Shown: positions 31,179-62,316 of the stretch, one piece after another
Layout of the letters: each line of letters starts with the position of its first letter
How positions within the stretch are numbered: the first letter of the stretch is position 1
NCBI GenBank assembly: GCA_044892525.1
Contig: CM097888.1
Span: forward strand, 1,674,001-1,738,000
DNA from: Schmidtea polychroa
Lineage: Eukaryota
DNA: 64,000 nt
Reading direction: 5' to 3'
Notes under the pieces: generated by a model
What the model was told of the DNA's origin: nothing
Databases searched by the model: none
Seen by the model: only the letters and a program-made list of their open reading frames with translations
Position numbers and translations under genes: made by a program

Positions 31179-31209
<31 letters not shown>

Positions 31210-43317: not shown

Positions 43318-44706
43318 CTACTCCGTCCTACTCTTCCCATCACGCCTCACCGCTATTTTTATGTATATAGTGTCGTTTCTCGTCATGTCTTCTACTTTCC
43401 GCTGTAGGATGAAATTTGGTGCTCCAGTTGCTGGTCCTTCTTCTTCCAAGGGCCTTTGGTAACATACGAGGTTTCCCGCTGTATGGAAACTCTGTTCGTG
43501 TATACTTTGATAGTTCATCATTGCAAGGTCTATTTTTGCTTTGAATGGCCATTCTATTAACTCGTCGTATGGCCCTTTGCACATCAAGAAGAATACTGAG
43601 AAATGCGTTCCGTATGCACTTCCATCCCCATTGGGGTATGCTTTCATTTTCATTTTATACCCGTTTTTCCATGAGTAGAATGCTGGACTTAGTAATGTTG
43701 TATCCTTTCCATTTCTCGCTCTCTGCATCTTCTCTTTTATTCCCGTTATTTTCCATATGTACGGAGCCGTTGGTATTAATTCGTTGAGGTTTAATTCGCT
43801 TACTTTTTGATGTAGTTCTTTCACCATAATGTTGCTAGTTTCTACTAGATCTGTCTGTATCTTTGTACTTGTTCTCGCCTCTTCAAATGCTTCCTTTTCT
43901 TCCAATAGTTCTTTTACCAACGCTTTTAGCGAGACTATTTCTCTTTCTAAGTTTTCGGTTTTCCTTTCGTTTTCCTGTACAACCGTTGACCATATTTCCG
44001 CGTGTGTTGATACGTTTTCTGCTAGGTGTTGGGGTAATTCTCCTCGGTGTAATTGTTTCGGACATCCCCATTTTCCTAGCACACACGTTATCTTTTTTCT
44101 TTCACACTCTTTTAGATGTTGAGCGAGTTTTATTACTCCGGGTTTATCGCATTTGTTGGGGCATTCTCCTCTGAATTCTGCGCACACTTTCTCCTCTTGT
44201 ATGTTGTGATGTTGACTGATTAGTTTCTTCCAGGTGTCGTTTTCTCCGCAATACTCGCATTTCTCTATTCTTTCTTCGCATCGACTTTGATGTTCTGCTT
44301 CTTCATTGACTTTAATCTCTTCTTGGCAACGTTTGCATTGACTGATTTTATACTCACATTGCTCCGTATGTTGCCTCACTTCCCATATCACTCCTCGCCA
44401 ATTACATGGGGTGTTTTTACATCCTAGGTTTGCATTCAACATATCTTTTACAGCTGCTTTATCTTCGTTTGTATCTCCCAAACTTGTTATCATTGTTTCT
44501 TTGCATACTGGGCACCATTGTGGTCCCTTCTTTATTATCTCCTCTACACATTCTCTGCACATTCTGCATCCACATCTGGTTTGGTGAGGTTCTCTTAATA
44601 AGCTCTTGCATATTCCACACGTTACATGGTTGTGTATTCGAATTGTGGTGGACTTTCTAATTTGTTCAACAATTTCTCTGAATTCTTCTCGTTGTCGCTT
44701 ATCCAT
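43318..44706 (-). CDS. TRAF: Full-length intronless TRAF (RING, TRAF zinc fingers, coiled coil, MATH), 462 aa
   Basis: RING CGICKSLLREPHQTRCGCRMCREC..CPVC; several C/H zinc fingers; MATH YIWKI..SPAFYS..GYKM..YPNGDG..GTHFSVFF..GPYDELIEWPF, closest by eye to the TRAF1/2/3/5 type. Confidence 0.92.
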   Translation of the reverse strand: MDKRQREEFREIVEQIRKSTTIRIHNHVTCGICKSLLREPHQTRCGCRMCRECVEEIIKKGPQWCPVCKETMITSLGDTNEDKAAVKDMLNANLGCKNTPCNWRGVIWEVRQHTEQCEYKISQCKRCQEEIKVNEEAEHQSRCEERIEKCEYCGENDTWKKLISQHHNIQEEKVCAEFRGECPNKCDKPGVIKLAQHLKECERKKITCVLGKWGCPKQLHRGELPQHLAENVSTHAEIWSTVVQENERKTENLEREIVSLKALVKELLEEKEAFEEARTSTKIQTDLVETSNIMVKELHQKVSELNLNELIPTAPYIWKITGIKEKMQRARNGKDTTLLSPAFYSWKNGYKMKMKAYPNGDGSAYGTHFSVFFLMCKGPYDELIEWPFKAKIDLAMMNYQSIHEQSFHTAGNLVCYQRPLEEEGPATGAPNFILQRKVEDMTRNDTIYIKIAVRRDGKSRTE

Positions 44707-44795
44707 TTCTATAATTATATATATACATATATTCGTTACCGGTACAGTTTCGTATTTTTATTTACATTTATTTACATTGCTATTTTAGGTTATAT

Positions 44796-45155
44796 TTATT
44801 GGCTGGAAGAGTCGGCCTCTTGTCCGCCCTCTTCCCTGTTGGTTAACCATTCTGACCAGTCTTCTATCTCCTCTCGCTCCATCTCTTCCGCGATTCTTAT
44901 TAACTCTTCTTCTTGCACCTGGCTGTATCGTGATATTCGGTCTATCTCTCGCTGCATTTGTTCTATTTTCATTCGTTGGTCTTCGATTATTCTTACATAA
45001 TTGAAGCCTTTATTTAAACTTTCGACTAAGCTTCTTTGTACAGCGAGTCCTTGTTCCTGTAAATTCGAAATCACTTGAGTTAACATTGCACATTGTTGTT
45101 TCCACATCTCCTCGGTTGTTGTACTGTGGTTTACTTCCTCGCCTATTCGCTCCAT
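44796..45155 (-). CDS. 119-aa coiled-coil/acidic protein
   Basis: First ATG at 45155 (the track starts at TTG 45179); helical, acidic C-terminus. Confidence 0.55.
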   Translation of the reverse strand: MERIGEEVNHSTTTEEMWKQQCAMLTQVISNLQEQGLAVQRSLVESLNKGFNYVRIIEDQRMKIEQMQREIDRISRYSQVQEEELIRIAEEMEREEIEDWSEWLTNREEGGQEADSSSQ

Positions 45156-45323
45156 TCTTAATTTATATATACTTTTCAATCCTTATCTAATTTTATTTTT
45201 ATATTAATTATCCCCATCATTATATACTATTGATACCGCGCTTATATAAAAATATAGAATACTGTTATATAAATAAATATTTCCTACTTACTTTTTACAA
45301 TCTATATACAGTCATAATCCTTT

Positions 45324-48300
45324 CTATATACGTGAGCTTGGAGGGCGCTGAGCATTCCAGGCCTCCACCCACTGTTCCTGCTTGATATTACTTGGTCGTT
45401 TTACACGATGTTGAAAATTTCTTATTCTGGCCATTTCTAGTTCTCCGTGATGCCGTCTATCTTTGATTATTTTTATTGTCCCCCCCGTTATGATTAAAAA
45501 GGCCCCTGTTATTATTATGCCGCTGATCCACATCATCTGTTTTATGCTTATAATTTCCGCTTTTTCCTTGCTCGTTATTGTTGATATTGTTTCTGTGCTT
45601 TTTAGATTACCGTCTTTGCCATTTCCTTTCATCATTCCTCGTATTCTTGCTATTTCCTCGTTCATACCTTCCTTTGCCATTTTTTGTATTTTCTCCATCT
45701 CCTCCTCGGATACATAATTGTCTTGATGTTTCTCACTGTTTTTCTTGCGTTTTCCTTGCTCATCTTTTTCATCATCGATTTTTCTTTTCTTCCCTCTTTT
45801 CCCAGGGTATCGTCGACATTCTCTCGCTGTATCTTTTCTCCAGATGCATATTGTGTATTCTTTTGGAGGTTGTTGCTGTATTACATATTGTAGACAGTCT
45901 TCACCCGGTCTTAATCTTGCGATGCAGACTTTGTGTTCTTTTCTTGGCTGGAGTTGCGTTATCACTACCTCACCTCCTTTTCCCAGGTGTACCTCCTTCC
46001 CTTTGACTTTCGTTATTCTCTTTCCTTCTCGATTTCGGTATGCTTCTTGTATTCTTACTTCCGTTATTGGTTCTGCATCTTCATTTTTTAACACTAGTCT
46101 CTGATAAGCTCTAGACATACATCTTCCTAATATACACCTTTCTTTTAAATCCCATTCTTCTTTTAGATCCCATTGCTGCTCTTGTACTTGTTTTTTCTTT
46201 TCTTGTTTTAATTCTTCCTCTTTGTTGTCCTTGTTTTCCGTTTCTTTGGCTTCTTTTATCGTTCTCATTCCTCCCTGGGCTGTTATCATTTCCACCATTG
46301 TTAGTACGAGTATCATTATCATCATATTTGTCTCCATTTCTTTGTTGGTAAAAAGTAGGCATACCCTCTGTTTTCCACTATTCGTCTTTTCTTCTTGCTT
46401 CCTTCGGTTTCTCGGGTTATTTTCCTCTTTTTTCCTGCTCGCGTCGTTATTTTCTTGATTATTCTCCTCTGATTTCTCTTTCTCTTTATTCCCGTTTCGA
46501 CCTTTTTCATTATTATCGTCGTCTTTATCGTCTTTATCGTCTTTATCTCCCCCTCTATCGTTTAAAATGTCGTCCTCGACATTTATCTCATTCAACAATC
46601 TGCGGTATGCCGTTAGCACTCTGTTTCTTGCTAATTTTGCTTCGGGTTCGAACTCCTTTCTGCCTGTTGCTACATGTCTCTTTCTATTCCATTCTTTCAC
46701 TAATTCTCTTAATTGTATCCGACGATGTTTCCCGATTCGCTTTTGTTCGTGTAGATTCTGCGTGAATTTGAGATCTTCCCTGTTTAATACGATCATTATG
46801 ATTTTCGGAGTTCCTCCTTTCGTTAGTGTATTTTTAACCATAGCATTTTCTCCGTTTTCGTAGAACTCATTTATATTTATTGCATATTTATTGCTTTGTG
46901 GTATTCTCCATGTTAGCAGCAACTTCATGGCTTCTAAGTTCATCCGTATCGTGTTCCATTGGAACTGTGACGTGTTTTTACAGATATTTTCTACCTCAGT
47001 TCTTGTAGCATTTTTACAAATGAATCTAATCATTTCCAAGTTTGGTTGTATTGTTGCCCAATCCATGGTGGAATTTCCTTCGTTTGATATTTCGTCAAGT
47101 CTCGAACCTGATTGATGTAGTATATGTAATGTTTTTGGGTGTATATTTGTTATGGCTGCATACATCATTGCTGTTTCCCCTTGTTCATTTTTTGCATTAG
47201 ATTCTTCTCCGAAGTCTCTAAGGATTCTTATGATGGTTATTGCTCTGTTTTCTTTTGCTGCTAAAATGGCTTGTTGTAATGGTGTTCTTGAGTCTTTTGT
47301 TGGTAAGGTGAATGCTAGTGGTATAAATGTTTTTATTTTTCCTATGTCTAGATTTGTGGTCTGATCTCTTGCGTAGGTGTGTACTGTTTTGGTTATTTTC
47401 GCCAGTATCGCTTCATCGGATAGATCTTGCATTTCTTCAAAGAATACTTCTTTAGCCTTACGTACTACTATCTCTTGGTCGGAGTTTATTATCTTTGGTT
47501 TACTTGTTGTTGCTATATCGGTTATTGGTTGATCGACTTGTTCCTCAGACTCTCTTGCTTTTACTTTCTTCATTTTTATCTTTTTCTTGTTCGAACTGTT
47601 AATGCGTTCCTCTGCCGTTAGAACTTGAATAATACTTAGGTAGTTTTCTCGAATGTTGTTCATAGTTTCCATCATATGTAAAACACTCACGGTGTCCCAA
47701 AATTTTACTTGTACTTTATCGGTAAATTGAGATATAGCTTTTTCGAAGTTGGTAATTCGTTTTCTGATTAGTTGTTCGTCTTTGTGATTTGAGAATTTTA
47801 TGCCACGTTGTAGTAGTTGATTTGGAATTTCGAATAGGTGATGTCCTCTCATCGCTTCTCTCATCAAGGTGTTTTCTCCTTTGGTAAATGTTTCGTTTAT
47901 ATCTACCATATAGTCGTTTTTTATCGGGTTCCTCCATGCAATTAGTATTCCAGTAATTGTTGTTAATTTCTCTTTGATTGCAGTTAATAGCCCGTCATAC
48001 ATGTTTCCTATTTCTCTATTATCCTCGTATGATATTAGATCTACTAAGATTATGAAGGCTTCCGTACTTTTCCCTTCGATTGCATGATGTAATGCATTTT
48101 TCTGGTTGTGATCTTGTGTGGTTATCTTTGACCCAGTTTCGAGTAATGCGATGATAATATCTTTAGCTTTATCCCGATTGGCTGCTATCATTAGTGGAGT
48201 GTAACCTTGGTTGTTTTCTTGATCTGTCGAAATGTTACAATCGCGAAATGCTTCAATTGTTTCTAATATCTGTTCGTTACTACCCACCTTTAAAAGCTTG

Positions 48301-51300
48301 TGCAGGGGTGTGTCTCCGTAGTGGTCTGTGATCGTGAATAATATAGGCCATTGACTTTTAACTACCCTGAGCAATGGGTGTGTTCTTTCTCGGTTTGCAT
48401 AATTTTCGATCATTGTTAGCAGACCTCCCAATATCTCAAAATCTAATCTGTCTTCTGCCCATCCGGGCATTTTAACTTTTACTTCCTTTATGATTTTCTC
48501 GGCTTCTGATGGTTGTAACCCTAATCGATTACCTGTTGGTTCGTTTATTTGCTGTAACATGTTTATTCTATACGTTTGTGATCTTGTCGTTAGTGTACGT
48601 CCTTCTGGCTGACTGGTGGCGGTTTTCGGAATTGGCTTACATCGTGCAACATTTACATATATTGGCCTTGTAAAAGGGTTGTTCACTAATCGTACTCTTA
48701 CATTAGTTTCTCCGACGAATAGAATCTCATACGGCCCTTTACCGTTTCGTTGTAATTTTTTGGTGGTTCCTGGAATTAATTCTGGTGTTTCAATCATCAC
48801 CCAATCGCCTGTTTGAAACGTATGCTGTTTGACGTTTTTCTTTCTATCATGTAACTCTTTGTAACTTTCTTGATAAAATTTTATATTCAATCCTGCGGTT
48901 TCCCAGATTTCCTGCATTCTTTCCTTGAACTTGGTTACATAATCGTCTATTTCCATGTACTGTGATATCGGTGGCTGATATTCTAAATCCATTGGCATAT
49001 TGCATTCTCTGCCGTACATCAACTTGAACGGACTCATCTTTGTGGACGCGTGAATCGACATTCTGTAAGCCATGAGGCATAATTTTATATATTCATCCCA
49101 GTCTCGTTGATGACGATCGACATAATTTGATAACATTTGAATCAGTGTTCCATTGAATCTTTCTGTCATACCATTAGTTTGTGGATGGTACGGTGATGTT
49201 CTTAATTTTGCGATCTTGAAGTAGTTGGTGACTTCGCTCATTATTTCGCTCATGAAATTCGTTCCTTGATCCGTCAGTATTTGTTTCGGCGTTCCATATC
49301 GACAACATATTTCCTCTACTAATATTTTTGCGATTGTTCTTGCTTTCTGGTCTGCCATTGCGAATGCTTCGGGGAATTTTGTCAAATAATCTGTGATTAC
49401 TAATATATATATATTTCCTCTATCTGATTCTGGTAGTGGACCGACTACGTCCATTGATATCATCGTCATTGGTTCTGCTGGCACTGGCATTGGCTTTAAT
49501 GGTGCCTTCCATTTTGTTCCCGTGTTTTTTCTGGTTGCGCAAGTTATGCAATTTTTCACCCATTCTGTTACATCCTCGGTCAATGTAGGCCAAAAATATT
49601 TTTGTTTCATTCGTGCCAACGTCTTTTTAGATGACATATGTCCTCCGAGTCTTCCGTCATGGTATTGTGTTAGTAGATCTTTACGTCTATTCTCGGGAAT
49701 GCACATCAGTCTTTTCTCGCCATCCATTATCAATAACCAATCTTTCTCGATAATATATCGATGTCGTTGTTTATCCATGTGCTCCTTCAATTTTTGATCT
49801 TTCTCATATACCTCTGCTTTCCCTGTTTTCACATATTCAATGATTTGCTTCAACTCTGTATCCTCTTGTTGGTCTTTCCGTAATTGGCAAAAATCTAAAT
49901 CTTCTGCTACCATCAGACATATTCGTTGCATTTCGTGATCTACTAAATCTGGAAAGATAAATCTGGACATACAATCCGCATTGGCATTCGCTCTTCCCGC
50001 TTTGAATTTTATGAACGGTGAATATTCTTGTAACTGCATTGCCCATCGCATCAATCTACTTGAAGCTTCTTTGTGTTGACCAAGCCATACTAATGGTTGG
50101 TGATCCGTGGTGATACATATTTCGTGTCCCCATAACAAATATCGAAAATGTTTAATTGCTTGTATGATTGCTAACGCTTCTCTCTCGGTTACGGAATAGT
50201 TTTTCTCGTGCTTTTTAAACGTTCTACTGTAGTATCCAATCACTCTTTCTTTTCCTTCTTCATCCAGTTGTCCTAATATTGCTCCGGCTGCATATCCACT
50301 TGCATCTGTTGCTAATAGGAACGGTTTCTTGAAATCAGGATGTACTAGTATTGGGGCTTCAATTAATTTATCTCGCAATGTCTCAAACGCTTTTTGTTGT
50401 TCTGCACCCCAAATAAATGAAATATCCTTTTTCACTAATTCCTGTATTGGTTTCGCAATACCTGCATAGTTTTTGATGAATTTTCGATAATATCCGCATA
50501 ATCCGAGAAATTCTTGAACTTGGGTGACAGTTTTTGGTGCTGGACATGTTTTTATTTTTTCTATGTTTCTTGGATCTGGTTCTTTGCCTTTTGCTGACAC
50601 TATGTGTCCTAAGAACGTAACCTTTTCTTTTGCCCAATCACATTTGGATGGTTTAAGTTTCAGTTTCCATTGTCGTAATCGAACGAACACATTTCTGATA
50701 TCTTCCAAATGTTGTTTGAATGTTGCTGAATATATTAATAAATCATCAATATATACCATACACTGCTTGATCCCGTGTGTGACAAAATTCATACATCTCT
50801 GGAATGATGCTGGGGCGTTGGTCAGTCCGAACGGCATTTTCCTGAATTGGTATAGATCTCGGCCCAATGTGAATGCTGTTTTCTCTTTGTCTTCCTCCTT
50901 GACTTTGATCTGCCAATATCCGCTTTTCAGATCTAAAGATGTAAAATATGCGGCCCCCTGTAACATAAGTAACATCTCATTGATGTCTGGTAACGGGTAT
51001 GTGTCTCTTTTTGTTACTGCATTTAATTTCCGATAATCGATACAGAATCTCTGAGTACCGTCTTTTTTCTTCACCATGACTACTGGAAATTGCCATGGTG
51101 AGCAACTTGGTTCGATCACTTGTGCATCTAGCATTTTTTGTACTTCTGCTTCGGCTATCTCTTTTTGCTTCTCTGCTAGTTTGTATGGACGTAGTGCGAT
51201 TGGAGTTTCGTCTATTAATGGTATTGCGTGTAATGTAACATCGCATGCTCCCAAATCTAAATCCGAAATTGCGAATATATCTTTATATTCTATCAATAAT

Positions 51301-54300
51301 TGTTGAAGTCTTTCCTTCTCTTTTTCCGTTAGCAAGGTGCTGTCAATTATCCATAATTCGTCAGCTTTCGTTGTTTCGTTGATGATTTTTGGTAATTCGA
51401 TGTCTATCATGGGTGTCAATCTACCCAATCTTTCATTTTCATATATGATCTTGTCTTCTTCCTCAAAATTTGTGATGTTAATTGGTATTTCCCCGTCTTC
51501 ATTTATTGTTATTATTTCTCTTGCTAATGGTAATTCTCGTCGTTTTTCGAATGATTTGCTTGGCTCAAAAATGACTTCTCCTTCCATTCCTGCATCCACT
51601 TTTATTTGACATATCATCTGTGATTTTGCGGGTACAATTATTTTCTCCGGGCATCTAATTATTGCGTTCATCTTGCATATTCTACCCATTTTGTCTTTTA
51701 GACACATTGTTGTTAAATCGATTACTACTTCCTTAAATAATTCCGGCATTAAATCCGTTCCGATTATACATGGTTCACTCAGTTTGGGTATCACCGCTAG
51801 ATACGTTTCAATTTCGTTATCCTGATATCGTAACGTAGTCCACCATCTTCCTACTACGTCTACGGTTTCTTTACTGCATGCAATAATATGGATAGTTGTT
51901 TGTTCGATATCCTTCCAACATTTACTGGGTATTTGGTTTATTGCTATTGCTGATACGTTTGCTCCGGTATCTATCATGGCGCTTGTCTCTTTCCCGTTGA
52001 TTTGGATCATGACTGTTACTGCCGCACCTCCTGGTGAACTCATCACTGCTATCGTTCTTACGTCGTCCGCTTGGTCTACACTTTTCGTTCTTCGGGTCGG
52101 CATATAGTTCATTCCTGGTTGACTTGGTAACTGTGGATACATATTTTGTGTCATGGTCAAAGCTGTTTGTTGTCCAACGATATCTGGTGGTATGTAACTT
52201 CCGTTGGCTATCCAGGTATTTGTTTTTTCTTTCTCCCAATATGGTGCTGTTTCTATTGGCTTTTCATTCGGGTTTCTACTTGGATATGGGTATTTGTCAT
52301 TCCCGTTGTCGTCATCATCACTATCGCTGCTGTTTGATCGATTCCTAAATCTGTCTAAGAATTTTGGTTTGTTCTTTTTCAGTTGCGTCCTTGTTGCTTC
52401 ATCATACATCGTTTTCCGAAATCGTCTACCGACTTCCTCGTCAGTTCCTTTTATTTTTGTCAGTATTTTGATCAATCGTTTTATTCTGTGTATGTCTTTA
52501 GAATGACCGTGCAACACCATTGTTTTCGCCAAAAATGGTAGAAAGCCTACTATCAATTTCCAATTTACCTTCTTTTCTCTCTTATAGATATCAAAACACG
52601 CTAACATTTGAGTTAATATTACTCTGACGATCTGAATAATTAAGATGATTCCCAATATTCCTGCCATCATTTGACCGAACACTAGAAATCTTCCCCACAT
52701 TGCTTTCATCATGTTTGACGTGGCTTGTTGAAAATGATCAGGTGACAATAATAGTTCGTAATTGGGGCCTGACTGGAAATTCGTTCCCCCAGTTATGGTA
52801 ACCATATTCGATAGAATGGATTCCCGTCTTGCTGGGAATAATACGTTTAATCGTGCCGTTTCTAAATCCTCCGGTGAGTACATACCTGCTTTTGACACAT
52901 CAATTGGTTTGAAATCTTGTTCTGTTGCGAGTTCTATTAGTCCAAACTTTTTAGGTTCTTGTACTTCGGTTTTTACCGGTAACATTATCCATTTCCCATC
53001 GGGTTTTTCATATAACGGTCCGTATGCATTTGAACAGTTAAAGGTGTTCGGGTAAAATCCAATTGGGTTCATTATTCGAGTGACGGGTTGAACGAATCTG
53101 TTTCGCCCTTTGTAACTAATTTCTAACTCGTTTGCACATTTCCCTGGTGGAATTGTGGGCTTTCTTGGCAGTCGCGCAAATGTCTTGGTACATGCATATG
53201 TATACATTACCTCTCCCACCATTCTACCAAAATGTCCATCCGGTAACGGGAGTGATGGCATTGTGTTATCTGGGTGTGTTATTGCGATGGCTAATTTTGT
53301 TTTTAGTATCTCTTTATTCAATGAACAGTCATTTTGTATAAGATCGTAATACACTTTTTGCATTGTCGTTTGTCCTCGGTGAAATAAAAAATCCATTTTG
53401 TTATTGGCGTACAGGTACAATTTTACGTCCTCTGTTGCTACCTTTCCCACTGCTCGGTCTATTACTTGCCTGGACATGTAGATACCTGCGTAGTTCGTCC
53501 GGTATACTATGCTGTCACATTTGGTGGTCTCTTTTTCTCTAATGAATCTCATGCCGATATCTGGGTCATCTGTAATTAATGCCGTTGGTGTTTTTTGGGT
53601 TGTGAGTCTCTTTTCTTTGGGGGATGGCGGAACTGGTTTCCCATTTCGCATCCTTACGTTTCCATTCTCTTCATCGTCATCCTCGTTTTCGTAAATTTCT
53701 CCTTTTACTTCATTGAATAGAGCACTTTTTAACAATTGGAGTCGGCATTTTTGGGTGTTAGCTTCATATATTATAGTCGAAATTCCCGTTCTACACACGT
53801 TTTCCGTAGCTCTGCATGCTGGGTTGGTTTTCATTTGATAGTTGTTTGCGTCGAATTGTGCTTCGTATTCCTTCAACTCCACTGTGTAGGACTCAATTAC
53901 TACTACTCCCGATATCACCTCTCCTCTGATCGTATATGTGCCTCCGTTACATGATCCATCAGTTGATTTTACTCGTCCAGCGACATAGATACTTTCTGTC
54001 TTGATCATTCCGCTTTGTCCGTGTATTGTTACTCCATCCCTGATTCTCATTGCTCCGGTTCTAAAAAGCTCTTTACAGTCTTCCCGTTGTATAGGTACTA
54101 TTTCTTTATCTAATCCCGGTAATATAAGGGTTGAATATGAGTATTGTCCACAGTAATATGCCAACACTTTCTTTGATACTACGCATTCTCTAGCTTGCGT
54201 TCTAATGAAATCTGATTCTTGGTATACGTGATAGGAGACTTTCTTCTTTACTATATCTAATTTATTCGGAGACGCCTGTCTACATTCCTCTATATCTCTC

Positions 54301-57300
54301 AGGGAGTATCTTTCTCCTATTATCGAATTGTCACAGTCGTAAATAGTAAATCCCGCGGCTCCACTGGTGCAGAGCATCCATATCATCATGGTCATCATTA
54401 GTGAATTAATCGACGCTTTTCTGCTGGCTGGGTCTTTCAATGGCAATTCCCATTCTAGCTCATGTAGTAACTTCTTCAACCGAATTTGCATTGATCTCTC
54501 TTGCTCGTTTTTTCGTGGCGCTTGTATGAGTCTTTTCCACCCACCGGCGCGGATGATATGTGGTTCGATTGTATTTTCAATGATTGTGACGGTCATTTCT
54601 ACATGATTTGCGAATTGTTTGTTAGGTATTTTCCTTGCTGCTAATCCCATCAAATTGTACATTAGATACGTTAATACTACTAAATGATGTTCGTCGTCGT
54701 TTGCGTTTAAAGTTAATTGTTCAATTACTCTTCTTGTCTCTTCCCAATCGGTTTTAGTGGTTTTTGTCTTCTCTTTGATTAATTTCGGAATTATTCCGGA
54801 TATTGTATTCCATAGTTGTCTGGCGTCTACACTTGCTACTTTTCGTTGCCATAACCGTCGCAATTGTGGGTTCGTTATTATTAGCATATCTTTTACTAGC
54901 TCTCGTATCCATTTTTCGCCTCTTTCGATAGTTGGCTGGGCCTCTTTTAGATCCCACACTATTTTATCCAGTTTCTCTAATCTGACTTGTCCTTGTTCTT
55001 GTTTCAGTTGTTCTCTAGTTTTAAATTCCGGTTTTTCTCCTTGCTTCTTGGGTCTCCCTTTTGCCCGTTTTTCCATCATTGTTCCGGCTTCCCTTGTATT
55101 TTCATAATTCGGGTTTCTCTCGTTATCCGTTCTTGGCAATGAACTATCGTTATTTCTTAGCCATTCGTTCCATTCGTCTATTATTTTGTCCGTTTGACCT
55201 TCTGGTGTTGCTTTCGTTGGTCCTTTCTGTCGTTGGAATTGTTCGTCGGTTTCGGTTTCTGTTGTATTATCGATAATCTCCTCGATACTCAGCTTATTTG
55301 GCTGCTGATAGCTAGTTGACGGTTGGCTTGTTGTCCATATTTCGGCTCCTGTCGGCCATCTTACCAGAATTGGTGATCTTTCTCCAGCTCCTCCATCGCT
55401 GTCTTCCAATATAATTTCCTCGATTTCCTCGGTTTCATTCGTTTTACTTGCCACTTTGTTAGGGCTTGGTGTACTCAAGCTACCTTTCGTAGGTTTACTG
55501 GATTTGTTCTTCCTTTTAATCGGTTTTCCCAATGTTTCTGCCATTGTCAATACATTGATCTCCCCCAATCTCATGGGTGTTATTCCGACATCTGCATTAT
55601 CATCCAACGATTTTCCGAATAGTTGTAGGTGAAATGGAGTTTCGTATGCTAATTTCTTTTTTAACTCTCTGATCTTTGTTGTTGGATGTACTTCTGTATC
55701 CTCAATGCTTTTGTCGGGATACTTGACTCGGATACGATACCTTTCCTGGGTATCTTGTGCCCATTCTTGGTTTCTCCATTTCCTAATAATTTGTTCTAGC
55801 TGTTCTGGGTACCATTCGTTATATTGTCTGTATTCCTCAATCGCTTTCGCCATTTCTCTTAGATTGTGGATATTCTCTGATGTCTTTAGGATGATGTTAG
55901 CCAATGCTATTACTTGACGTTTTTGATTTTTTGTTCCCGTTGCTAAGATATCACCTAATTGTTTATATCTTTCCTTCTCTTCTCGTTCTCGAGCTTCCAT
56001 CGCTTCTTCGCTATCCATATCGGCATATTCGCGTTCTTTCTTTCTCATCGCATGAATATGTCTGGTTTCCGTTTCACTTTCTGATGTAACATCCGTTTCG
56101 CTTCCGTCGTCCGATGTCGATTCTATTTCGTCCTCTTCATATTTTGGAGGTTCATCTTCCTCTTCTTCTGATTCACTTTCTATCTCACCAATGTCTGTTT
56201 CCACGAAAATCCCTTTCCTGATTTTCCATTCTTTGTTTTCCGCATTCCACGTCCTTTCCCATGGGGTTCGTCTGCAGGATCTCACACTTAGTTTCTTTAT
56301 TTTTCCTTGAAGCTCTTTTTCTTTTAACCACTGTTGATGAATTTCAATTATCTCTACTGATTTTTGATATAGCGTTTTCATCCTGTCTCGTATTTCTTTC
56401 TGGTATGTTATATCTCTTGTTCGGAATTCGTCCATGGGCAATATTCTGATGATTTGATGATTATCCCACATTCCCATTTCGCTTAGCGAGGTGTCGTCTT
56501 CGGCCCGTAATATTATTTTATCGTACATCATGACTACGTCATCTATCATCCCGTCGCTACTCTCGCTTCGTACTTTTTCCGTTATCTCTTGGTTTATCTT
56601 GGTTACTAAGTCATCTACCGTACTCTGATTACTCATCTTTATTCGTCGTTTCTCCTCGTTTGGTAACCATATGGTTATTTCTAATTTCTGCGGTTGCGTT
56701 TCTTTCAACCTGCCATATTTGTGGATCAAATTTATGGTTCTCCAATCGCTCATCCTGAGCAATTCTGTATCTCGTAATCGGCTCATTAGCTCATGCATGT
56801 CTGGAGTTCGTCTTGCTATGAGTAAATCCCAGTTATCTTCGACTTGTTCTTGAATTTGTTTGATTAATTTATCTAGATTTCGTCGCAAGGTGCATTGTTT
56901 TATTTGTTCCAGCTTCAGCTTGATGCTAAAATCGTACTCGGCCTTGGCGTCTTTAGCCCATTCGTGAATATTTGCTGGTTGTTTCTCTTTATACAATTTC
57001 AATATTTGAGTTTCTCCTGGCCAGATCAATGCATCTATTAGGTGCATGTCTGGTTTGATTTGTTCTCCTTGATGTTGATACAGATATTCTTTCTTTCTCG
57101 AGCTGCCCAAATGTTCTCTTATCCAATCGAAAAGGTCGTCTGTGACTGCATTTTTTATCCATATTCTCTCGAGTCCTTTACTCGTTCCGATTTTTATTAC
57201 ATAGCGTGTTGTCTCCGCTTGTTTCATTTTTTCCATATACTTCTTTATTATCACTTTTTCCTCGTTTGGTATTAGGTCTTTTTCGTTTCTTTCTAGTTTC

Positions 57301-59759
57301 ATTATCTTTTGTATGAAGCGTCGGTATGGTATGATGTCAATGAATTCCTGGTTTCTTACCACCACTGGAAGTATTTCCTTTACTTGTTTTATCGCTTCTT
57401 CTCTTTCTTTTCTCAATTTCATTTCGATATTCTCGTCTTCGCTTTCGCTTGTCACGTCGCTTTCTCTTTCATCTTCATCTGCTCCGATCTTTTCTCTTAG
57501 TTGGTCGATATTCTCATTTAACTGTAACATTTCTCCACCAAGGCTACTCACATAATCCTCATCGTCATCTGTTGACAACACCTTCTTTGTTGTCCTCATC
57601 ATATTAATTCGTAAATTTCTCATTCTTGGTACTTTCTTTAACTTGTTGTTCTCGAGTATCGTTAGCTCCTCTGAGTCTAATTCTCGTATCATATTATGCT
57701 TTAGATGATTAATCTGTTTTTCATTTTCGTTATTTTCTGCTTCTGCTTCTGTTTTTGTTGGCTCATTTTCTCTTTCGATTTTATCTTTTATCTTTTTCCA
57801 AAATATTTTCTGAATTCTCTGATTTCCTTTTAGTGGTGTTGTTGAATTTTCCTTTTTTGCTGCTGTAATTGTTTCTTTCGGTTTCTCTGGTTCGCTCATA
57901 GGTACAACTCTTGGATTTTTACCGTAATTGTAACAATATTGCTCCTTTATCTCCTTTACCATCCTCATCATATTTATTCGTAGTGGTTGTTCTTGTCGCT
58001 GCTGAATTCGCTCTCTTTTTATCCTTTCTTCTTCAGCTTGTAGTCTTTGCCATTCTTGTGCATGTTGTTGCACTTCATAATTGTTAAGATTCTCGGTGCT
58101 TCTCATCATGCGTATATTCTGGGTTGGTTGTGGTACTTGCTCTTGTCTCGGTCTCATCATTTGTTGCATCATCTGCTTCATTTGTGAAATTTCTTGCATC
58201 ACATTCATTTGCTTTCCCTCACTAGGATTACTTTGTCGTTGCGGATTTGGTGCATAGTTATTATTTCGCTGTGGTGGTCGTTGCTGTTGGCTCCTTTCTC
58301 GACAGTCTCTTGAGATATGACCTAGTTGCCCGCAGTTAAAACATCCTCTTGATTGGCATATATTTTCCGTGTGTCCTCGTCGTCCACACCTATTGCAATT
58401 TGCGTTTCGGTAACAATCTCTATCCCAATGTCCTGGTTTACCGCATGTTCGGCATTGTTTGTTATCGTTCATATTTCGTCGATTATTAAAGTTGTTCCCA
58501 TTGTTCGAGTTGTTGCGTTCACTGTTATTCCCGTTTGATCGTCCTTGTGGTGGTTTGAAAATTTGATGTGCTCCTGGTATAAACTGATTCATCTTGGGTT
58601 CATGATTATTGTTATCCCCATTTTCCGTTTTCACCGTTGCTGTTGCGATTCTTCCCTCCTCTTGCATGACGTTCATTTGTGCTGGGAGGTGTAGTTCGCA
58701 TCTTGTGGCCCAATCTATGGCTTCTTCTAGTGTTTTACACATTTGACATCCCACCGAGGCCCTTACCTCTTCTCGGCGTAGTCCTTCTATGAAATAACCA
58801 ATTAAATTTTCCTCCGGCAAGTTTCCGTTCATGGCCTTCTTTGCCAATCTTCGCAATTCACTTGCGTATAACGTAATTGACTCGTTTGCTCTTTGTTTTC
58901 TACTTGCCAGTTCACCTAACGCTTGATTTATTGGTTTGCTGGCTCCGAATGTTTTTCTCAAAAATGTTTTGATGTTTTCCCAATTGTCTAATTTCGTATT
59001 TCTTTCTTTTGCTTCCAGATATACTTCGAGTGCGCTATCGCACAAAAACAGAGGCATTCGTTTACTAATTGCTTCGGGTGTCCATCCACACACATCGATA
59101 TAGACTTCAAAGTTGGTTATGAACGTTGCCAACTTGTTCGCATTCCCGTTGAATGGTTCGCCTCTAAATTTTTCCTTATACTCGTCAGTTTTTACCACAT
59201 TCATCTTAATTGGTTCTTGAAACTCTATTATTTCCTTTAAATTTTCCAGCGATGTAGCTAAGCTATGGACGGATAATTCTTCTGTTGACCCGGTTAGGTT
59301 GTTTGTTATATCGGATAGACTTTCTCTACTTCTAGATCGGCTGGGCGTATGTCCGGCTGTGGGGTTTTCTTGATCGTATATCGGTGTTTTGTGGGGTCTT
59401 TTTGCTCCTTGTGATATTCCTCTCTTCTGCCTAAATGATCGTCCTCTTTTGAGTTGATCTAATTCGTCTCCTGAAAATAATACGTCTCCTGGCTTACTTG
59501 AAGATCTAAGGTTGGGTTTATCCGTGATTTTCCTTTTACTCTTTTCTGTCTTTTCACGTGGGTTTTCTACGGTTAGCGTCTGCTGAATTGGTCGAGTTCG
59601 GTTTTGATATTGTCTTCCTTTGTGCGGGTTCTGAATTGCTTTTCCTGGGTTGTTTGTATATTCTCTGGATTCCTCTTGAGCTGGTTCTGAATTGACTTGG
59701 TTGGATGGATGTCTACAATGAAAATATGATATCGTGTTGCCTTTGCTTACACGAATCAA
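45324..59759 (-). CDS. 4,811-codon Gag-accessory-Env-Pol-ANK-membrane polyprotein
   Basis: Uninterrupted 14.4-kb frame; first in-frame ATG at 59204 (codon 186); domains listed separately. Confidence 0.95.
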   Translation of the reverse strand: MIRVSKGNTISYFHCRHPSNQVNSEPAQEESREYTNNPGKAIQNPHKGRQYQNRTRPIQQTLTVENPREKTEKSKRKITDKPNLRSSSKPGDVLFSGDELDQLKRGRSFRQKRGISQGAKRPHKTPIYDQENPTAGHTPSRSRSRESLSDITNNLTGSTEELSVHSLATSLENLKEIIEFQEPIKMNVVKTDEYKEKFRGEPFNGNANKLATFITNFEVYIDVCGWTPEAISKRMPLFLCDSALEVYLEAKERNTKLDNWENIKTFLRKTFGASKPINQALGELASRKQRANESITLYASELRRLAKKAMNGNLPEENLIGYFIEGLRREEVRASVGCQMCKTLEEAIDWATRCELHLPAQMNVMQEEGRIATATVKTENGDNNNHEPKMNQFIPGAHQIFKPPQGRSNGNNSERNNSNNGNNFNNRRNMNDNKQCRTCGKPGHWDRDCYRNANCNRCGRRGHTENICQSRGCFNCGQLGHISRDCRERSQQQRPPQRNNNYAPNPQRQSNPSEGKQMNVMQEISQMKQMMQQMMRPRQEQVPQPTQNIRMMRSTENLNNYEVQQHAQEWQRLQAEEERIKRERIQQRQEQPLRINMMRMVKEIKEQYCYNYGKNPRVVPMSEPEKPKETITAAKKENSTTPLKGNQRIQKIFWKKIKDKIERENEPTKTEAEAENNENEKQINHLKHNMIRELDSEELTILENNKLKKVPRMRNLRINMMRTTKKVLSTDDDEDYVSSLGGEMLQLNENIDQLREKIGADEDERESDVTSESEDENIEMKLRKEREEAIKQVKEILPVVVRNQEFIDIIPYRRFIQKIMKLERNEKDLIPNEEKVIIKKYMEKMKQAETTRYVIKIGTSKGLERIWIKNAVTDDLFDWIREHLGSSRKKEYLYQHQGEQIKPDMHLIDALIWPGETQILKLYKEKQPANIHEWAKDAKAEYDFSIKLKLEQIKQCTLRRNLDKLIKQIQEQVEDNWDLLIARRTPDMHELMSRLRDTELLRMSDWRTINLIHKYGRLKETQPQKLEITIWLPNEEKRRIKMSNQSTVDDLVTKINQEITEKVRSESSDGMIDDVVMMYDKIILRAEDDTSLSEMGMWDNHQIIRILPMDEFRTRDITYQKEIRDRMKTLYQKSVEIIEIHQQWLKEKELQGKIKKLSVRSCRRTPWERTWNAENKEWKIRKGIFVETDIGEIESESEEEEDEPPKYEEDEIESTSDDGSETDVTSESETETRHIHAMRKKEREYADMDSEEAMEAREREEKERYKQLGDILATGTKNQKRQVIALANIILKTSENIHNLREMAKAIEEYRQYNEWYPEQLEQIIRKWRNQEWAQDTQERYRIRVKYPDKSIEDTEVHPTTKIRELKKKLAYETPFHLQLFGKSLDDNADVGITPMRLGEINVLTMAETLGKPIKRKNKSSKPTKGSLSTPSPNKVASKTNETEEIEEIILEDSDGGAGERSPILVRWPTGAEIWTTSQPSTSYQQPNKLSIEEIIDNTTETETDEQFQRQKGPTKATPEGQTDKIIDEWNEWLRNNDSSLPRTDNERNPNYENTREAGTMMEKRAKGRPKKQGEKPEFKTREQLKQEQGQVRLEKLDKIVWDLKEAQPTIERGEKWIRELVKDMLIITNPQLRRLWQRKVASVDARQLWNTISGIIPKLIKEKTKTTKTDWEETRRVIEQLTLNANDDEHHLVVLTYLMYNLMGLAARKIPNKQFANHVEMTVTIIENTIEPHIIRAGGWKRLIQAPRKNEQERSMQIRLKKLLHELEWELPLKDPASRKASINSLMMTMMIWMLCTSGAAGFTIYDCDNSIIGERYSLRDIEECRQASPNKLDIVKKKVSYHVYQESDFIRTQARECVVSKKVLAYYCGQYSYSTLILPGLDKEIVPIQREDCKELFRTGAMRIRDGVTIHGQSGMIKTESIYVAGRVKSTDGSCNGGTYTIRGEVISGVVVIESYTVELKEYEAQFDANNYQMKTNPACRATENVCRTGISTIIYEANTQKCRLQLLKSALFNEVKGEIYENEDDDEENGNVRMRNGKPVPPSPKEKRLTTQKTPTALITDDPDIGMRFIREKETTKCDSIVYRTNYAGIYMSRQVIDRAVGKVATEDVKLYLYANNKMDFLFHRGQTTMQKVYYDLIQNDCSLNKEILKTKLAIAITHPDNTMPSLPLPDGHFGRMVGEVMYTYACTKTFARLPRKPTIPPGKCANELEISYKGRNRFVQPVTRIMNPIGFYPNTFNCSNAYGPLYEKPDGKWIMLPVKTEVQEPKKFGLIELATEQDFKPIDVSKAGMYSPEDLETARLNVLFPARRESILSNMVTITGGTNFQSGPNYELLLSPDHFQQATSNMMKAMWGRFLVFGQMMAGILGIILIIQIVRVILTQMLACFDIYKREKKVNWKLIVGFLPFLAKTMVLHGHSKDIHRIKRLIKILTKIKGTDEEVGRRFRKTMYDEATRTQLKKNKPKFLDRFRNRSNSSDSDDDDNGNDKYPYPSRNPNEKPIETAPYWEKEKTNTWIANGSYIPPDIVGQQTALTMTQNMYPQLPSQPGMNYMPTRRTKSVDQADDVRTIAVMSSPGGAAVTVMIQINGKETSAMIDTGANVSAIAINQIPSKCWKDIEQTTIHIIACSKETVDVVGRWWTTLRYQDNEIETYLAVIPKLSEPCIIGTDLMPELFKEVVIDLTTMCLKDKMGRICKMNAIIRCPEKIIVPAKSQMICQIKVDAGMEGEVIFEPSKSFEKRRELPLAREIITINEDGEIPINITNFEEEDKIIYENERLGRLTPMIDIELPKIINETTKADELWIIDSTLLTEKEKERLQQLLIEYKDIFAISDLDLGACDVTLHAIPLIDETPIALRPYKLAEKQKEIAEAEVQKMLDAQVIEPSCSPWQFPVVMVKKKDGTQRFCIDYRKLNAVTKRDTYPLPDINEMLLMLQGAAYFTSLDLKSGYWQIKVKEEDKEKTAFTLGRDLYQFRKMPFGLTNAPASFQRCMNFVTHGIKQCMVYIDDLLIYSATFKQHLEDIRNVFVRLRQWKLKLKPSKCDWAKEKVTFLGHIVSAKGKEPDPRNIEKIKTCPAPKTVTQVQEFLGLCGYYRKFIKNYAGIAKPIQELVKKDISFIWGAEQQKAFETLRDKLIEAPILVHPDFKKPFLLATDASGYAAGAILGQLDEEGKERVIGYYSRTFKKHEKNYSVTEREALAIIQAIKHFRYLLWGHEICITTDHQPLVWLGQHKEASSRLMRWAMQLQEYSPFIKFKAGRANANADCMSRFIFPDLVDHEMQRICLMVAEDLDFCQLRKDQQEDTELKQIIEYVKTGKAEVYEKDQKLKEHMDKQRHRYIIEKDWLLIMDGEKRLMCIPENRRKDLLTQYHDGRLGGHMSSKKTLARMKQKYFWPTLTEDVTEWVKNCITCATRKNTGTKWKAPLKPMPVPAEPMTMISMDVVGPLPESDRGNIYILVITDYLTKFPEAFAMADQKARTIAKILVEEICCRYGTPKQILTDQGTNFMSEIMSEVTNYFKIAKLRTSPYHPQTNGMTERFNGTLIQMLSNYVDRHQRDWDEYIKLCLMAYRMSIHASTKMSPFKLMYGRECNMPMDLEYQPPISQYMEIDDYVTKFKERMQEIWETAGLNIKFYQESYKELHDRKKNVKQHTFQTGDWVMIETPELIPGTTKKLQRNGKGPYEILFVGETNVRVRLVNNPFTRPIYVNVARCKPIPKTATSQPEGRTLTTRSQTYRINMLQQINEPTGNRLGLQPSEAEKIIKEVKVKMPGWAEDRLDFEILGGLLTMIENYANRERTHPLLRVVKSQWPILFTITDHYGDTPLHKLLKVGSNEQILETIEAFRDCNISTDQENNQGYTPLMIAANRDKAKDIIIALLETGSKITTQDHNQKNALHHAIEGKSTEAFIILVDLISYEDNREIGNMYDGLLTAIKEKLTTITGILIAWRNPIKNDYMVDINETFTKGENTLMREAMRGHHLFEIPNQLLQRGIKFSNHKDEQLIRKRITNFEKAISQFTDKVQVKFWDTVSVLHMMETMNNIRENYLSIIQVLTAEERINSSNKKKIKMKKVKARESEEQVDQPITDIATTSKPKIINSDQEIVVRKAKEVFFEEMQDLSDEAILAKITKTVHTYARDQTTNLDIGKIKTFIPLAFTLPTKDSRTPLQQAILAAKENRAITIIRILRDFGEESNAKNEQGETAMMYAAITNIHPKTLHILHQSGSRLDEISNEGNSTMDWATIQPNLEMIRFICKNATRTEVENICKNTSQFQWNTIRMNLEAMKLLLTWRIPQSNKYAININEFYENGENAMVKNTLTKGGTPKIIMIVLNREDLKFTQNLHEQKRIGKHRRIQLRELVKEWNRKRHVATGRKEFEPEAKLARNRVLTAYRRLLNEINVEDDILNDRGGDKDDKDDKDDDNNEKGRNGNKEKEKSEENNQENNDASRKKEENNPRNRRKQEEKTNSGKQRVCLLFTNKEMETNMMIMILVLTMVEMITAQGGMRTIKEAKETENKDNKEEELKQEKKKQVQEQQWDLKEEWDLKERCILGRCMSRAYQRLVLKNEDAEPITEVRIQEAYRNREGKRITKVKGKEVHLGKGGEVVITQLQPRKEHKVCIARLRPGEDCLQYVIQQQPPKEYTICIWRKDTARECRRYPGKRGKKRKIDDEKDEQGKRKKNSEKHQDNYVSEEEMEKIQKMAKEGMNEEIARIRGMMKGNGKDGNLKSTETISTITSKEKAEIISIKQMMWISGIIITGAFLIITGGTIKIIKDRRHHGELEMARIRNFQHRVKRPSNIKQEQWVEAWNAQRPPSSRI
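45468..46330 (-). other. Polyprotein C-terminal membrane module (signal-like segment, FN3-like motif, TM helix)
   Basis: MMIMILVLTMVEMITAQ; ITQLQPRKEHKVCI (resembles FN3 IxxLxPxxxYxVCV); TM MMWISGIIITGAFLIITGGTIKII, then basic tail. Confidence 0.5.
46790..48330 (-). other. Two ankyrin-repeat modules downstream of integrase
   Basis: DHYGDTPLHKLL, NNQGYTPLMIAA, DHNQKNALHHAI; then DSRTPLQQAI, NEQGETAMMYAA, NEGNSTMDWA. Confidence 0.85.
48630..49780 (-). other. Integrase (HHCC, DDE core, GPY/F); no chromodomain
   Basis: YHDGRLGGH..CITC; SMDVVGP; LTDQGTNF; HPQTNGMTERFNGTL; GPYEI. Confidence 0.95.
50000..50330 (-). other. RNase H
   Basis: LATDASG, YSVTEREALAI, TDHQPL, RWAMQL, NANADCMSR. Confidence 0.95.
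50560..51240 (-). other. Reverse transcriptase (Gypsy type)
   Basis: RFCIDYRKLN, SLDLKSGYWQI, MPFGLTNAPASFQR, YIDD (50742-50753). Confidence 0.97.
51670..52050 (-). other. Retroviral-type aspartic protease
   Basis: AMIDTGANVSAI (DTG at 51963-51971) and CIIGTDLM. Confidence 0.92.
52510..54398 (-). other. Chuvirus-like envelope glycoprotein (signal peptide, Cys-rich ectodomain, C-terminal TM)
   Basis: Signal MMTMMIWMLCTSGAAG; YDC..YSLRDIEEC; YQE..ARECVV..YYCGQYS; C-terminal WGRFLVFGQMMAGILGIILIIQIVRVI..WKLIVGFLP. These match, as recalled, Chuviridae G and the G carried by BEL/Pao elements. Confidence 0.75.
54528..54990 (-). other. Bcl-2-like helical segment
   Basis: IEPHIIRAGGWKRL resembles BH2 (WIxxxGGWxxF), preceded at suitable spacing by a degenerate BH1-like RVIEQLTLNANDDEHHLVVL. 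Confidence 0.45.
55548..57205 (-). other. Three ubiquitin/SUMO-like domains (about 56995-57205, 56440-56687, 55548-55743)
   Basis: For example YRIRVKYPDKSIEDTEVHPTTKIRELKKKL..LQLFGKSLDDNADV (TI.ELK, L.F.GK.L.D) and STVDDLVTKI..DDTSLSEMGM. Confidence 0.55.
58302..59204 (-). other. Gag capsid-like region plus three CCHC zinc knuckles
   Basis: FIEGLRREEVR, TLEEAIDWATRCE; CRTCGKPGHWDRDC, CNRCGRRGHTENIC, CFNCGQLGHISRDC (58302-58454). Confidence 0.93.
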
Positions 59760-60427
59760 TCATTCCTTTTTGCCACATTCAAGCACAGACACCGTTTTAG
59801 GGCCTCTGTTATACTTCTCTTCATTTCCCCTCATACGCTTCTTCGCGGAATATAATTTCCCATCAACCCATATTTTTCGTCGATTTTAAATTATCTATTT
59901 GGGGTGGTAACAATTATCTATATAGTCGTATAAATTATCTATAGTTAGCATTTATAATATCGATAGGTCGTTGTCAGTTACTGCTTATTACCCCCCATAT
60001 TTTCTTAATCCTTTTACGCGGTTCCGCTATTTTACTTAATCTTTCATCTCTGTTTCCCCTTATTTGGTTCTACTCTGTAACCAAAACAAAATTCGTTTAA
60101 CCGGTTTAAACCAAAAAAATTCTGTAGAACTTTGTCTACTTGTCTGGGATCCCTTTTTTAATTAATTAATCACCTTCCTCTTTTACTCATCACTTATTCT
60201 TTATTTTCATTATCTCTTTAATTCATTTTCCTTTTCCGTTTCTCTTTCCCACTGAAAAAAAAAATTTCATTATTACTTCCCACGAGCTCGTTTAATCCTT
60301 TCTAAATTCAAATATCATATTTCAAACTCACTTTGCTTCTAGCTAGCTTTAATATTCCATCTCACTAGTAATTTAAATGTTATCAACTTGTAGCTTGAAT
60401 GCTATCTCACTATTACTTTAGGCCTTT

Positions 60428-60782
60428 ACGACTGGCTGGCACTTTTCAACAGCTCAATCTTCTTCTCCTGACCGGTTGGACTATTCAACAACTCGATCTT
60501 ACGACTGGCTGGCACTATTCAACAGCTCAATCTTCTTCATCTCCGAACTGGCTGGACTTTTCACAGCTCAGTTTTAATTTTTCCTGACCGGCTGGATTTT
60601 TCAACAGCTCGGCCTTAATATCTCCGACTGGCTGGACTTTTCACAGCTCAGTTTTAATTTCTCCTGACCGGCTGGACTTTTCAACAGCTCGGCCTTAATA
60701 TCTCCGACTGGCTGGACTTTTCACAGCTCAGTTTTAATTTTTCCTGACCGGCTGGACTTTTCAACAGCTCGGCCTTAATATC
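60428..60782. repeat. Nine ~40-bp repeats in the element leader (alternating ~79-bp dimer)
   Basis: Core GACYGGCTGG(C)ACTWTTCA(A)CAGCTC. Confidence 0.9.
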
Positions 60783-61366
60783 TCTAAACTCTGCATGCTT
60801 CCGTTCCTTTTTGTCTTTATTCTATACTGTCATCTTCCTATTTTTACTTTTATTTGTCGACTTAATCTGTACCGCTTTGGAAGGTTTCCCCTTTCCCCCC
60901 TTGCTTAAAACGCAAAACGATCGCATTGATCCATTTCTGCATTGGTATGGTGATCAGCCATACCGCAGAAACTTTTCAATATTCGCGATGGTACCTCGCC
61001 TTACATCTCTTACTCGGGGTGATCGGTTATCCCCTCCCGAACGGTTTTTCAATTATCGTACCTCCCGAAGGTGGCTCGGTTTATTCCCCCTTTAATCTTA
61101 TGTTGGGACTAGCTCCACTTTATGTACTCGATTTAAATTTTAAAATACCCTTTCTTCATGGTGAAAATTATGATACAACAGATCAAATTATAGCTTCGCA
61201 AAATGAAATAAACACACAAAAATGATTTATTGATTATTCAGTCCATGCTACATATGATATATGATACCATTATTAAAATATTAATGAATCAAATCAAAAA
61301 AAATTAAAATATTTTAGTTTAATTGTTCAACCATCCAATTTCTCTCACCGAGCGACGATCACGTAC

Positions 61367-61846
61367 CTAACTGAAGTAGATTGTGTGCTTCTCTTTTATT
61401 ACACATGTGCACATAGAACACCGGATTAAACTGGCGGCGCATTCGTCACAATGGCTAAGGTGCCCACAAGGTAGAATCAGAATTTTGACAGGTCGCATCT
61501 TGCAAATGTTACAAGTTCTCAAGGCCGCTGCTTTCTCTACTATTGATGTTCGTATCCGCTGAGACAGAGTTTTGACTCGTTCGCGTATCCTCACATATTC
61601 GATGTTCAGCGCTGGGTCGTCGAGACGTTGCTGAAACCATTGGTAATGAATCGACAAGTCGGTATCGGTATTTGTTGATCCTAATCTGTCGGTTAGAAAG
61701 TTTTGTTTGGATATCAGCGGTGCGTTGTGGCTTTGTTGTTCTAGCAGTTCTATTTGTTTCAGTTTTTCCCTTAATGTTTTTATTGAATCATTTTCTATTT
61801 CGACGAACCGGCTTAGCTGTTGTAGATGTTGTCTAGCGTCTGACAT
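61367..61846 (-). CDS. 159-aa coiled coil + C-terminal IAP/MDM2-type RING, no BIR
   Basis: CNICKMRPVKILILPCGHLSHCDECAASLIRCSMCTCVIKEKHTIYFS resembles IAP RING CKICMD..IVFIPCGH..C..CA..L..CPICR..I...F.S. Confidence 0.85.
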   Translation of the reverse strand: MSDARQHLQQLSRFVEIENDSIKTLREKLKQIELLEQQSHNAPLISKQNFLTDRLGSTNTDTDLSIHYQWFQQRLDDPALNIEYVRIRERVKTLSQRIRTSIVEKAAALRTCNICKMRPVKILILPCGHLSHCDECAASLIRCSMCTCVIKEKHTIYFS

Positions 61847-62298: not shown

Positions 62299-62316
62299 AT
62301 CCCGGCTGAGCCCCCA
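62299..62316 (-). promoter_or_regulatory. Primer-binding site, tRNA-Pro-like
   Basis: Minus strand TGGGGGCTCAGCCGGGAT, 16/18 match to the vertebrate tRNA-Pro PBS TGGGGGCTCGTCCGGGAT; 7 nt from the LTR end. Confidence 0.8.

Follow-up and report, generated by a model that had tools for sequence, protein, structure and literature searches.

Retrotransposons of the Burro/GYPSM1 type in the planarian Schmidtea mediterranea encode MATH_TRAF, BIR, ankyrin, BCL2-like and Ubi/SUMO-like domains together with an in-frame env, and a 2019 review, in which Burro1/GYPSM1 is attributed to Jurka 2007 and Grohme et al. 2018, already suggested that they meddle with host apoptosis and ubiquitination (PMC6431247). 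In addition, the BIR-RING protein of Burro1, B-IAP, guards stem cells from caspase-mediated death (Lee, Poulet, Allikka Parambil and van Wolfswinkel, Dev Cell 2026), as reported in PMC13465017. We analysed a window of 64,000 nucleotides from Schmidtea polychroa (assembly GCA_044892525.1, contig CM097888.1, positions 1,674,001 to 1,738,000), in which a single unit of 30,423 bp on the minus strand spans TRAF, IAP-type RING, Bcl-2-like, ankyrin and ubiquitin-like (Ubl) sequences. The unit is an intact, recently inserted copy of an env-bearing Gypsy long terminal repeat (LTR) retrotransposon of the Burro group, a placement based on its layout and on a family with Burro1 layout in the same genome, the published Burro1-4 being compared by description alone. 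The headline idea is therefore already published, both the cargo list and the proposed interference with the host standing in PMC6431247, and the novelty assumed by the original prediction for this locus was not sustained; the element belongs to a BIR-less family of the known group.

As described for Burro1/GYPSM1 (PMC6431247), the element exceeds 30 kb, has long LTRs and contains one giant open reading frame (ORF), within the range of 4,600-4,900 amino acids (aa), with Gag, ubiquitin-like and BCL2-like segments, an in-frame env placed before protease, reverse transcriptase (RT), RNase H and integrase, and ankyrins; TRAF/MATH cargo is also shared. However, the traits of Burro1/GYPSM1 proper, an in-frame MATH domain and a BIR-containing IAP, are absent: the polyprotein has a clean gap instead of MATH, and there is no BIR-RING ORF. 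Two ankyrin clusters are present, whereas one was detected in the Burro1-layout family. A Burro-like element of Dugesia tigrina likewise has a polyprotein without MATH and carries TRAF/MATH in an accessory ORF, but this ORF is located upstream of the polyprotein and the TRAF of the window downstream (PMC6431247). With B-IAP, reported in PMC13465017 to protect planarian stem cells, the element has in common a retroelement-borne candidate regulator of cell death, although B-IAP joins BIR and RING and the RING ORF of the window has no BIR.

All the named parts lie, as had been stated, between the LTRs of one element (36081-40260 and from 62324; coordinates are those of the window and, for the element, refer to the minus strand unless otherwise indicated). 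The two LTRs, of 4,180 bp each, differ by 1 mismatch and have TG..CA ends, and the element is flanked by a 4-bp target duplication (CAAG). In sense order the genes are the RING ORF, the polyprotein, a small ORF, TRAF and three further accessory ORFs. The polyprotein (4,626 aa, 45324..59204) contains successively Gag, Ubl1-3, the Bcl-2 fold, Env, protease, a segment at the dUTPase position, RT, RNase H, integrase, ankyrins and a C-terminal membrane segment.

The selection acting on this cargo was studied through ratios of nonsynonymous to synonymous substitution rates (dN/dS), calculated pairwise with codon-bootstrap intervals, the pairs not being independent, on 16 sequences: the window, 10 diverged copies of its TRAF-bearing family and 5 of a more distant subfamily. 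Values were 0.04 (0.02-0.06) for the Bcl-2 segment, 0.03-0.05 for the three Ubls, 0.07 for the ankyrins, 0.13 (0.11-0.16) for TRAF and 0.11 (0.08-0.15) for the RING ORF, which was covered in 11 of the 16 copies; RT and integrase gave 0.01 and 0.02. As controls, the untranslated leader gave 0.72-0.90 in its six frames and shifted frames 1.2-2.9. All named cargo is thus under purifying selection across copies (0.03-0.13 against 0.72-0.90 in the leader). In a sister family the values were 0.06 for Bcl-2, 0.12 for TRAF, 0.11 for an upstream RING ORF and 0.17 for a BIR-RING ORF, in a set of 8-9 sequences; other sequence occupied 3 of the 10 upstream stretches and 2 of the 10 downstream ones, and these were excluded. 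Since TRAF and the RING are separate ORFs, maintenance of the pol frame does not account for their constraint, and selection must act on the proteins that they themselves encode. Neutral evolution of TRAF and RING together with failure of the Bcl-2 fold, the outcome that the original prediction had named as speaking against it, did not occur.

The identity of TRAF was clear. This intronless gene of 462 aa (43318..44706) has all the features of the family, namely RING, TRAF zinc fingers, coiled coil and MATH, the last with a Pfam E value of 2.5e-25, and its best solved relatives are TRAF3/TRAF2 (E 3e-28). At least 92 full-length matches with 91-100% identity were found in the genome, and 84 of these 92 best-scoring matches were free of stops. 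The RING ORF (159 aa, 61367..61846) has a helical N-terminus and, at its C-terminus, an IAP-type RING with eight zinc ligands; the 10 best of its 13 PDB matches were RINGs of IAPs (cIAP1, cIAP2, XIAP, BIRC7; E 1e-9 to 7e-7). The predicted RING type was therefore right, and its cIAP identity was not: no BIR domain was detected by Pfam in this ORF or in the element, a BIR gene was found in 0 of 38 loci of the window's family, where 196-240 nt separate TRAF from the next ORF, and a RING from a family without a BIR-RING gene is not a cIAP. In cIAPs, TRAF2 is bound through BIR1, so the claim that TRAF acts together with a cIAP is left unsupported. The RING ORF matched the separate upstream RING ORF of the sister family along 150 aa (27%, E 1e-20) and a B-IAP-type BIR-RING at the RING end only (30%, E 5e-9), and it is, as judged from these alignments, the counterpart of the former and not of B-IAP. 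Another RING was seen outside the element, at the N-terminus of a 401-codon frame (16596-15391, minus strand).

A tree built on 45 MATH domains (11 from elements, 29 of 30 other genomic loci and 5 of 10 outside proteins) placed all the element sequences on one side of a branch with support 97/86, beside 8 long-exon TRAFs, which suggests one old acquisition followed by reshuffling inside elements. An intron-containing TRAF cluster on C2 stood apart, outside the Burro clade, so that a Burro origin of the planarian TRAF expansion was rejected for this cluster. The 8 neighbouring "host" TRAFs do not identify the donor, since 2 of them are followed, some 6 kb downstream, by gag-like frames. In these two (L177-L178 and L190-L191) TRAF and gag-like frame are on the same strand, an arrangement that resembles the upstream TRAF ORF of the D. 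tigrina element, and they are perhaps older Burro lineages.

The Bcl-2-like segment (54510..54932) is faint by sequence. Pfam gave an E value of 0.027, phmmer returned no Bcl-2 match, searches of the Atlas and of a word index found no relative, and neither of the 2 proteins retrieved by a representative-protein search was matched in its Bcl-2 part. A profile from two families reached Bcl-xL at E 1.4, and one from three families at E 8e-4, the latter being partly circular because the third family was chosen through a Pfam Bcl-2 search. By predicted structure, the Bcl-2 helical fold is nevertheless clear. A model built from 21 copies of three families (predicted local distance difference test, pLDDT, 67.6) was compared exhaustively with 48,161 chains, and ranks 1-35 were all of the Bcl-2 fold, the top match having Z 12.7 and a root-mean-square deviation of 3.0 over 137 aligned residues; every row displayed by Foldseek was also of this fold (best E 3e-3). 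The original call, which had named structure prediction as its check, was in this way vindicated. The model was closest to BH3-binding pro-survival proteins (Z 12-12.7), with A52, B14 and A46 lower (Z 6.3-8.1). Viral Bcl-2-fold proteins (BHRF1, A179L, M11L; vaccinia A52 and B14) offer a parallel of the fold in a mobile genome, with 7-17% identity, but the domain of the window is embedded in a Gag-Env-Pol polyprotein, and the fold does not of itself imply BH3 binding. A complex predicted between the domain and a BH3-like helix from the host Bcl-2 locus L052 scored 0.02, without an alignment, and has no weight either way. That locus belongs to a local cluster of seven near-identical canonical Bcl-2 exons (L052-L058, C4 89.9-90.8 Mb). 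Elsewhere, a group of multi-copy loci (L079:4905-5360, L081, L082 and L084:8916-9446) includes a short Bcl-2 ORF (Pfam E 1e-7) and, in related loci, an rve integrase, an A32-like ATPase and a further RING of IAP type; these are possibly Maverick/Polinton-like elements with their own cell-death cargo.

The three predicted Ubls fared unequally. Residues 182-270 of the Ubl2 model (56430..56696; dN/dS 0.03), although of low confidence (pLDDT 49), matched beta-grasp/Ubl chains with Z 7.4-8.3, and the Foldseek list was nearly all ubiquitin-like, which supports a beta-grasp fold. Evidence for Ubl3 (55530..55751; dN/dS 0.05) was weak but concordant with a ubiquitin-like domain: Pfam ubiquitin at E 0.017, four top matches of ubiquitin fold at E 0.3-0.9 and, from the language-model Atlas, ubiquitin clusters at 0.91. 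Ubl1 (56985..57212; dN/dS 0.03) stays a candidate with a fitting strand-strand-helix pattern, no family match in Pfam and no PDB match for a Ubl1-2 profile. Models of both Ubl1 and Ubl3 had pLDDT below 50, and the C-terminal Gly-Gly of conjugated modifiers was on none of the three. The ankyrin call was correct, with two clusters (47835..48329 and 46815..47297; each with dN/dS 0.07; Pfam Ank_2 E 5.9e-22). A DSGxxS degron beside the ankyrin stack is a feature of IkB; no match to it was found in the polyprotein of the window's family or of the sister family.

The same cargo was followed in related families of the genome. The sister family (L092-L095), whose intact copy has 34 kb and an ORF of 4,791 aa, is 91% identical to the window in RT and 60% in Env; it keeps the order of the window with MATH added in frame between Ubl2 and Ubl3, a BIR-RING ORF directly after TRAF and a separate upstream RING ORF. 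The slot between Ubl2 and Ubl3 (about 56000-56200 in the window) is empty here and variable elsewhere, holding MATH in the sister family and in P0001 and TRAF-type zinc fingers in P0002. A third family has frames near 3,050 aa with Gag, Bcl-2, Env and pol; TRAF, Ubl and ankyrin were not detected in the stretches examined. Bcl-2 is the sole cell-death cargo seen in all three Burro-type families. The cargo of the window was inherited from an older Burro ancestor, which at least three families share; the fresh capture by this one element that had been proposed is not supported.

Taking these data together, we consider it probable that the TRAF, RING, Bcl-2-fold, Ubl and ankyrin cargo keeps the transcribing cell alive and damps host stress signalling. 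A putative cleavage motif occurs 10 times at domain borders of the polyprotein (1.5 expected), and in all three families some 45-50 residues separate the GGW of the Bcl-2 domain from the Env signal peptide that follows it. Cuts by the element protease at this recurring motif would release Ubl1 together with Ubl2, Ubl3 together with Bcl-2, and the ankyrins as a third piece. The Ubl3-Bcl-2 piece would end in the Env signal peptide, which could serve as a membrane anchor like the tail anchor of cellular Bcl-2 proteins, while the separate TRAF and BIR-less RING may act as ubiquitin ligases or as decoys for host TRAF signalling. The element would benefit first, as living cells yield more copies of it, and the host perhaps as well. 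Of the earlier proposal that the cargo keeps cells alive, the part standing is the protein-level function shown by the dN/dS values, with a survival role reported for the sister element Burro1 in PMC13465017. Host TRAF knock-down increases cell death in planarians (PMC7586133).

Several observations weigh against a survival role. Constraint on polyprotein linkers (0.07) and C-terminus (0.13) is about equal to that on the in-frame cargo, so low dN/dS does not single out the cargo domains. The cleavage pattern was defined on the very sequence used for counting it, and the third family showed no enrichment (2 occurrences, 1.1 expected). In the Bcl-2 domain, the BH1 NWGR position reads DDEH in the window and DQNR and NRDK in the other two families, and BH2 keeps GGW and has Trp replaced by His; these replacements make canonical inhibition through a BH3 groove uncertain, and some Bcl-2 folds, such as those of A52 and B14, can function without binding BH3 (PMC2494871). 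The BIR-RING, the single cargo with a reported survival function, is missing in the window's family. None of the sequencing runs recorded as RNA contains the stretch. Contigs of three runs whose RNA status was guessed cover 30/30, 24/30 and 14/30 bins, one with poly-T loose ends, and neither transcription nor silence follows from them. In PMC8532177, BURRO1 RNA is raised on PIWI loss and enriched in intestine, but the rise is mainly in differentiated cells and BURRO1 RNA interference did not improve the PIWI-loss phenotype.

Some of these observations would also fit a cargo serving the life cycle of the element, with Ubl, Bcl-2 and ankyrins as spacers, tethers or assembly scaffolds and with TRAF and RING ubiquitinating Gag or host restriction factors. 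We regard this as unlikely, although it is the strongest of the alternatives: constraint on the in-frame cargo does not exceed that on Gag, Env and linkers (0.03-0.07 against 0.05-0.07), the Bcl-2 domain adjoins the signal peptide of Env, its key BH1 and BH2 residues are replaced and no Ubl has a Gly-Gly end. However, Burro families keep several unrelated cell-death regulators (Bcl-2 fold, TRAF, IAP RING and BIR-RING), and for one of them an anti-apoptotic effect is reported in PMC13465017.

It is less probable still that, as the original prediction had it, TRAF and a cIAP-like RING work on the TNF-receptor/NF-kB pathway, with the ankyrins as IkB mimics and the Bcl-2 domain as a binder of BH3 motifs. 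The TRAF2/3-like MATH, the cIAP/XIAP-like RING, the closeness of the Bcl-2 model to BH3-binding pro-survival proteins and the adjoining TRAF and BIR-RING genes of the sister family would suit such a model; against it, the window's family has neither BIR nor DSGxxS degron, NWGR is absent, and S. mediterranea has seven divergent RHD genes and no clear NF-kB homolog (PMC13563047). IkB mimicry is therefore not supported, and a link to death receptors or NF-kB in particular is unsupported. Finally, that the cargo is passive baggage in neutral decay is very improbable, for even if its Bcl-2 and ubiquitin likeness is faint and the window's family manages without polyprotein MATH and BIR-RING, the dN/dS values of two families (0.03-0.17, free-standing ORFs included) have intervals that stay well under 1, against 0.72-0.90 in the controls.

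Within the survival reading, we also advance a tentative and more specific proposal, which we hold to be possible but doubtful. In a Burro family lacking the stem-cell IAP, survival might follow a second route: the polyprotein would give rise to a free Bcl-2-fold protein, for which the Env signal peptide would be the anchor, and the family's own TRAF and BIR-less RING ligases would assist it. If this were true, Bcl-2 would be the oldest survival module of the Burro group.

The remaining features of the element agree with an intact copy. The 5' LTR (62324..64000) extends 2,503 bp past the window end, and 7 nt inside the LTR edge there is a primer-binding site (62299..62316) complementary to the 3' end of tRNA-Pro, in agreement with tRNA-Pro genes from the same genome. 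A tandem array of tRNA-Pro with 475-bp spacing was noted at L197 (C1 near 130.9 Mb), and the tRNA pattern had 1,577 matches genome-wide. The leader contains tandem repeats of 34, 40 and 80 bp (60426..60784, strand not assigned). Pfam identified Gag with CCHC knuckles (58275..59204), the aspartic protease (51738..52013), RT, RNase H and integrase (49128..51074), and Env (52515..54407; PF24664, E 6e-72), the latter composed of a signal-like hydrophobic stretch, a mononegavirus-type fusion glycoprotein and a transmembrane helix. The segment at the expected dUTPase place is conserved and had no Pfam match, and its dUTPase identity was not confirmed. Upstream of the first ATG of the polyprotein there is an open frame of 185 codons, whose last 100 codons (59504-59205) gave dN/dS 0.29 against 0.85-0.90 in other frames; an N-terminal extension of the polyprotein is possible there. 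The polyprotein C-terminus (46350-45450) has two hydrophobic stretches with a Cys-bearing segment between them, is present in the other two families and is perhaps a second small membrane protein.

After the polyprotein, the stretch 45320-44766 gave dN/dS 0.23, a value explained by its overlap with a small conserved helical ORF of about 119 aa (44796..45155), which gave 0.16 in frame and 1.35-1.45 in shifted frames; a 153-codon ORF occupies the same place in the sister family. Downstream of TRAF lie a charged, coiled-coil-like ORF of 345 aa (42062..43099; no Pfam match, homolog in the sister family), a charged ORF of 233 aa (41182..41883) and one of 211 aa with a hydrophobic segment (40491..41126), followed by the 3' LTR (36081..40260), which contains an ORF of 254 aa (37380-36616). 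Beyond the element, the window holds a Penelope-like element (31204-35138), with RT (34268-32388) and GIY-YIG (32252-31698) between 868-bp direct repeats 99.5% identical.

No dN/dS values or structure models for these domains were found in the literature searched, though Grohme 2018 and Lee 2026 may contain them; what is added here to the known Burro group is support for the Bcl-2 fold and evidence, from two families, that each cargo domain is under purifying selection. One consequence is that retroelement copies inflate the numbers of TRAF, BIR and Bcl-2 genes counted in planarian genomes. Furthermore, the window's family is successful, its TRAF-bearing copies numbering at least 92, and it does not have the BIR-RING gene to which the stem-cell benefit of Burro1 is ascribed; it conserves the Bcl-2 fold, TRAF and RING, and therefore a second survival route is testable. 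This natural contrast allows asking whether the reported mutualism between host and transposon is the work of one captured gene or a general strategy of the group.

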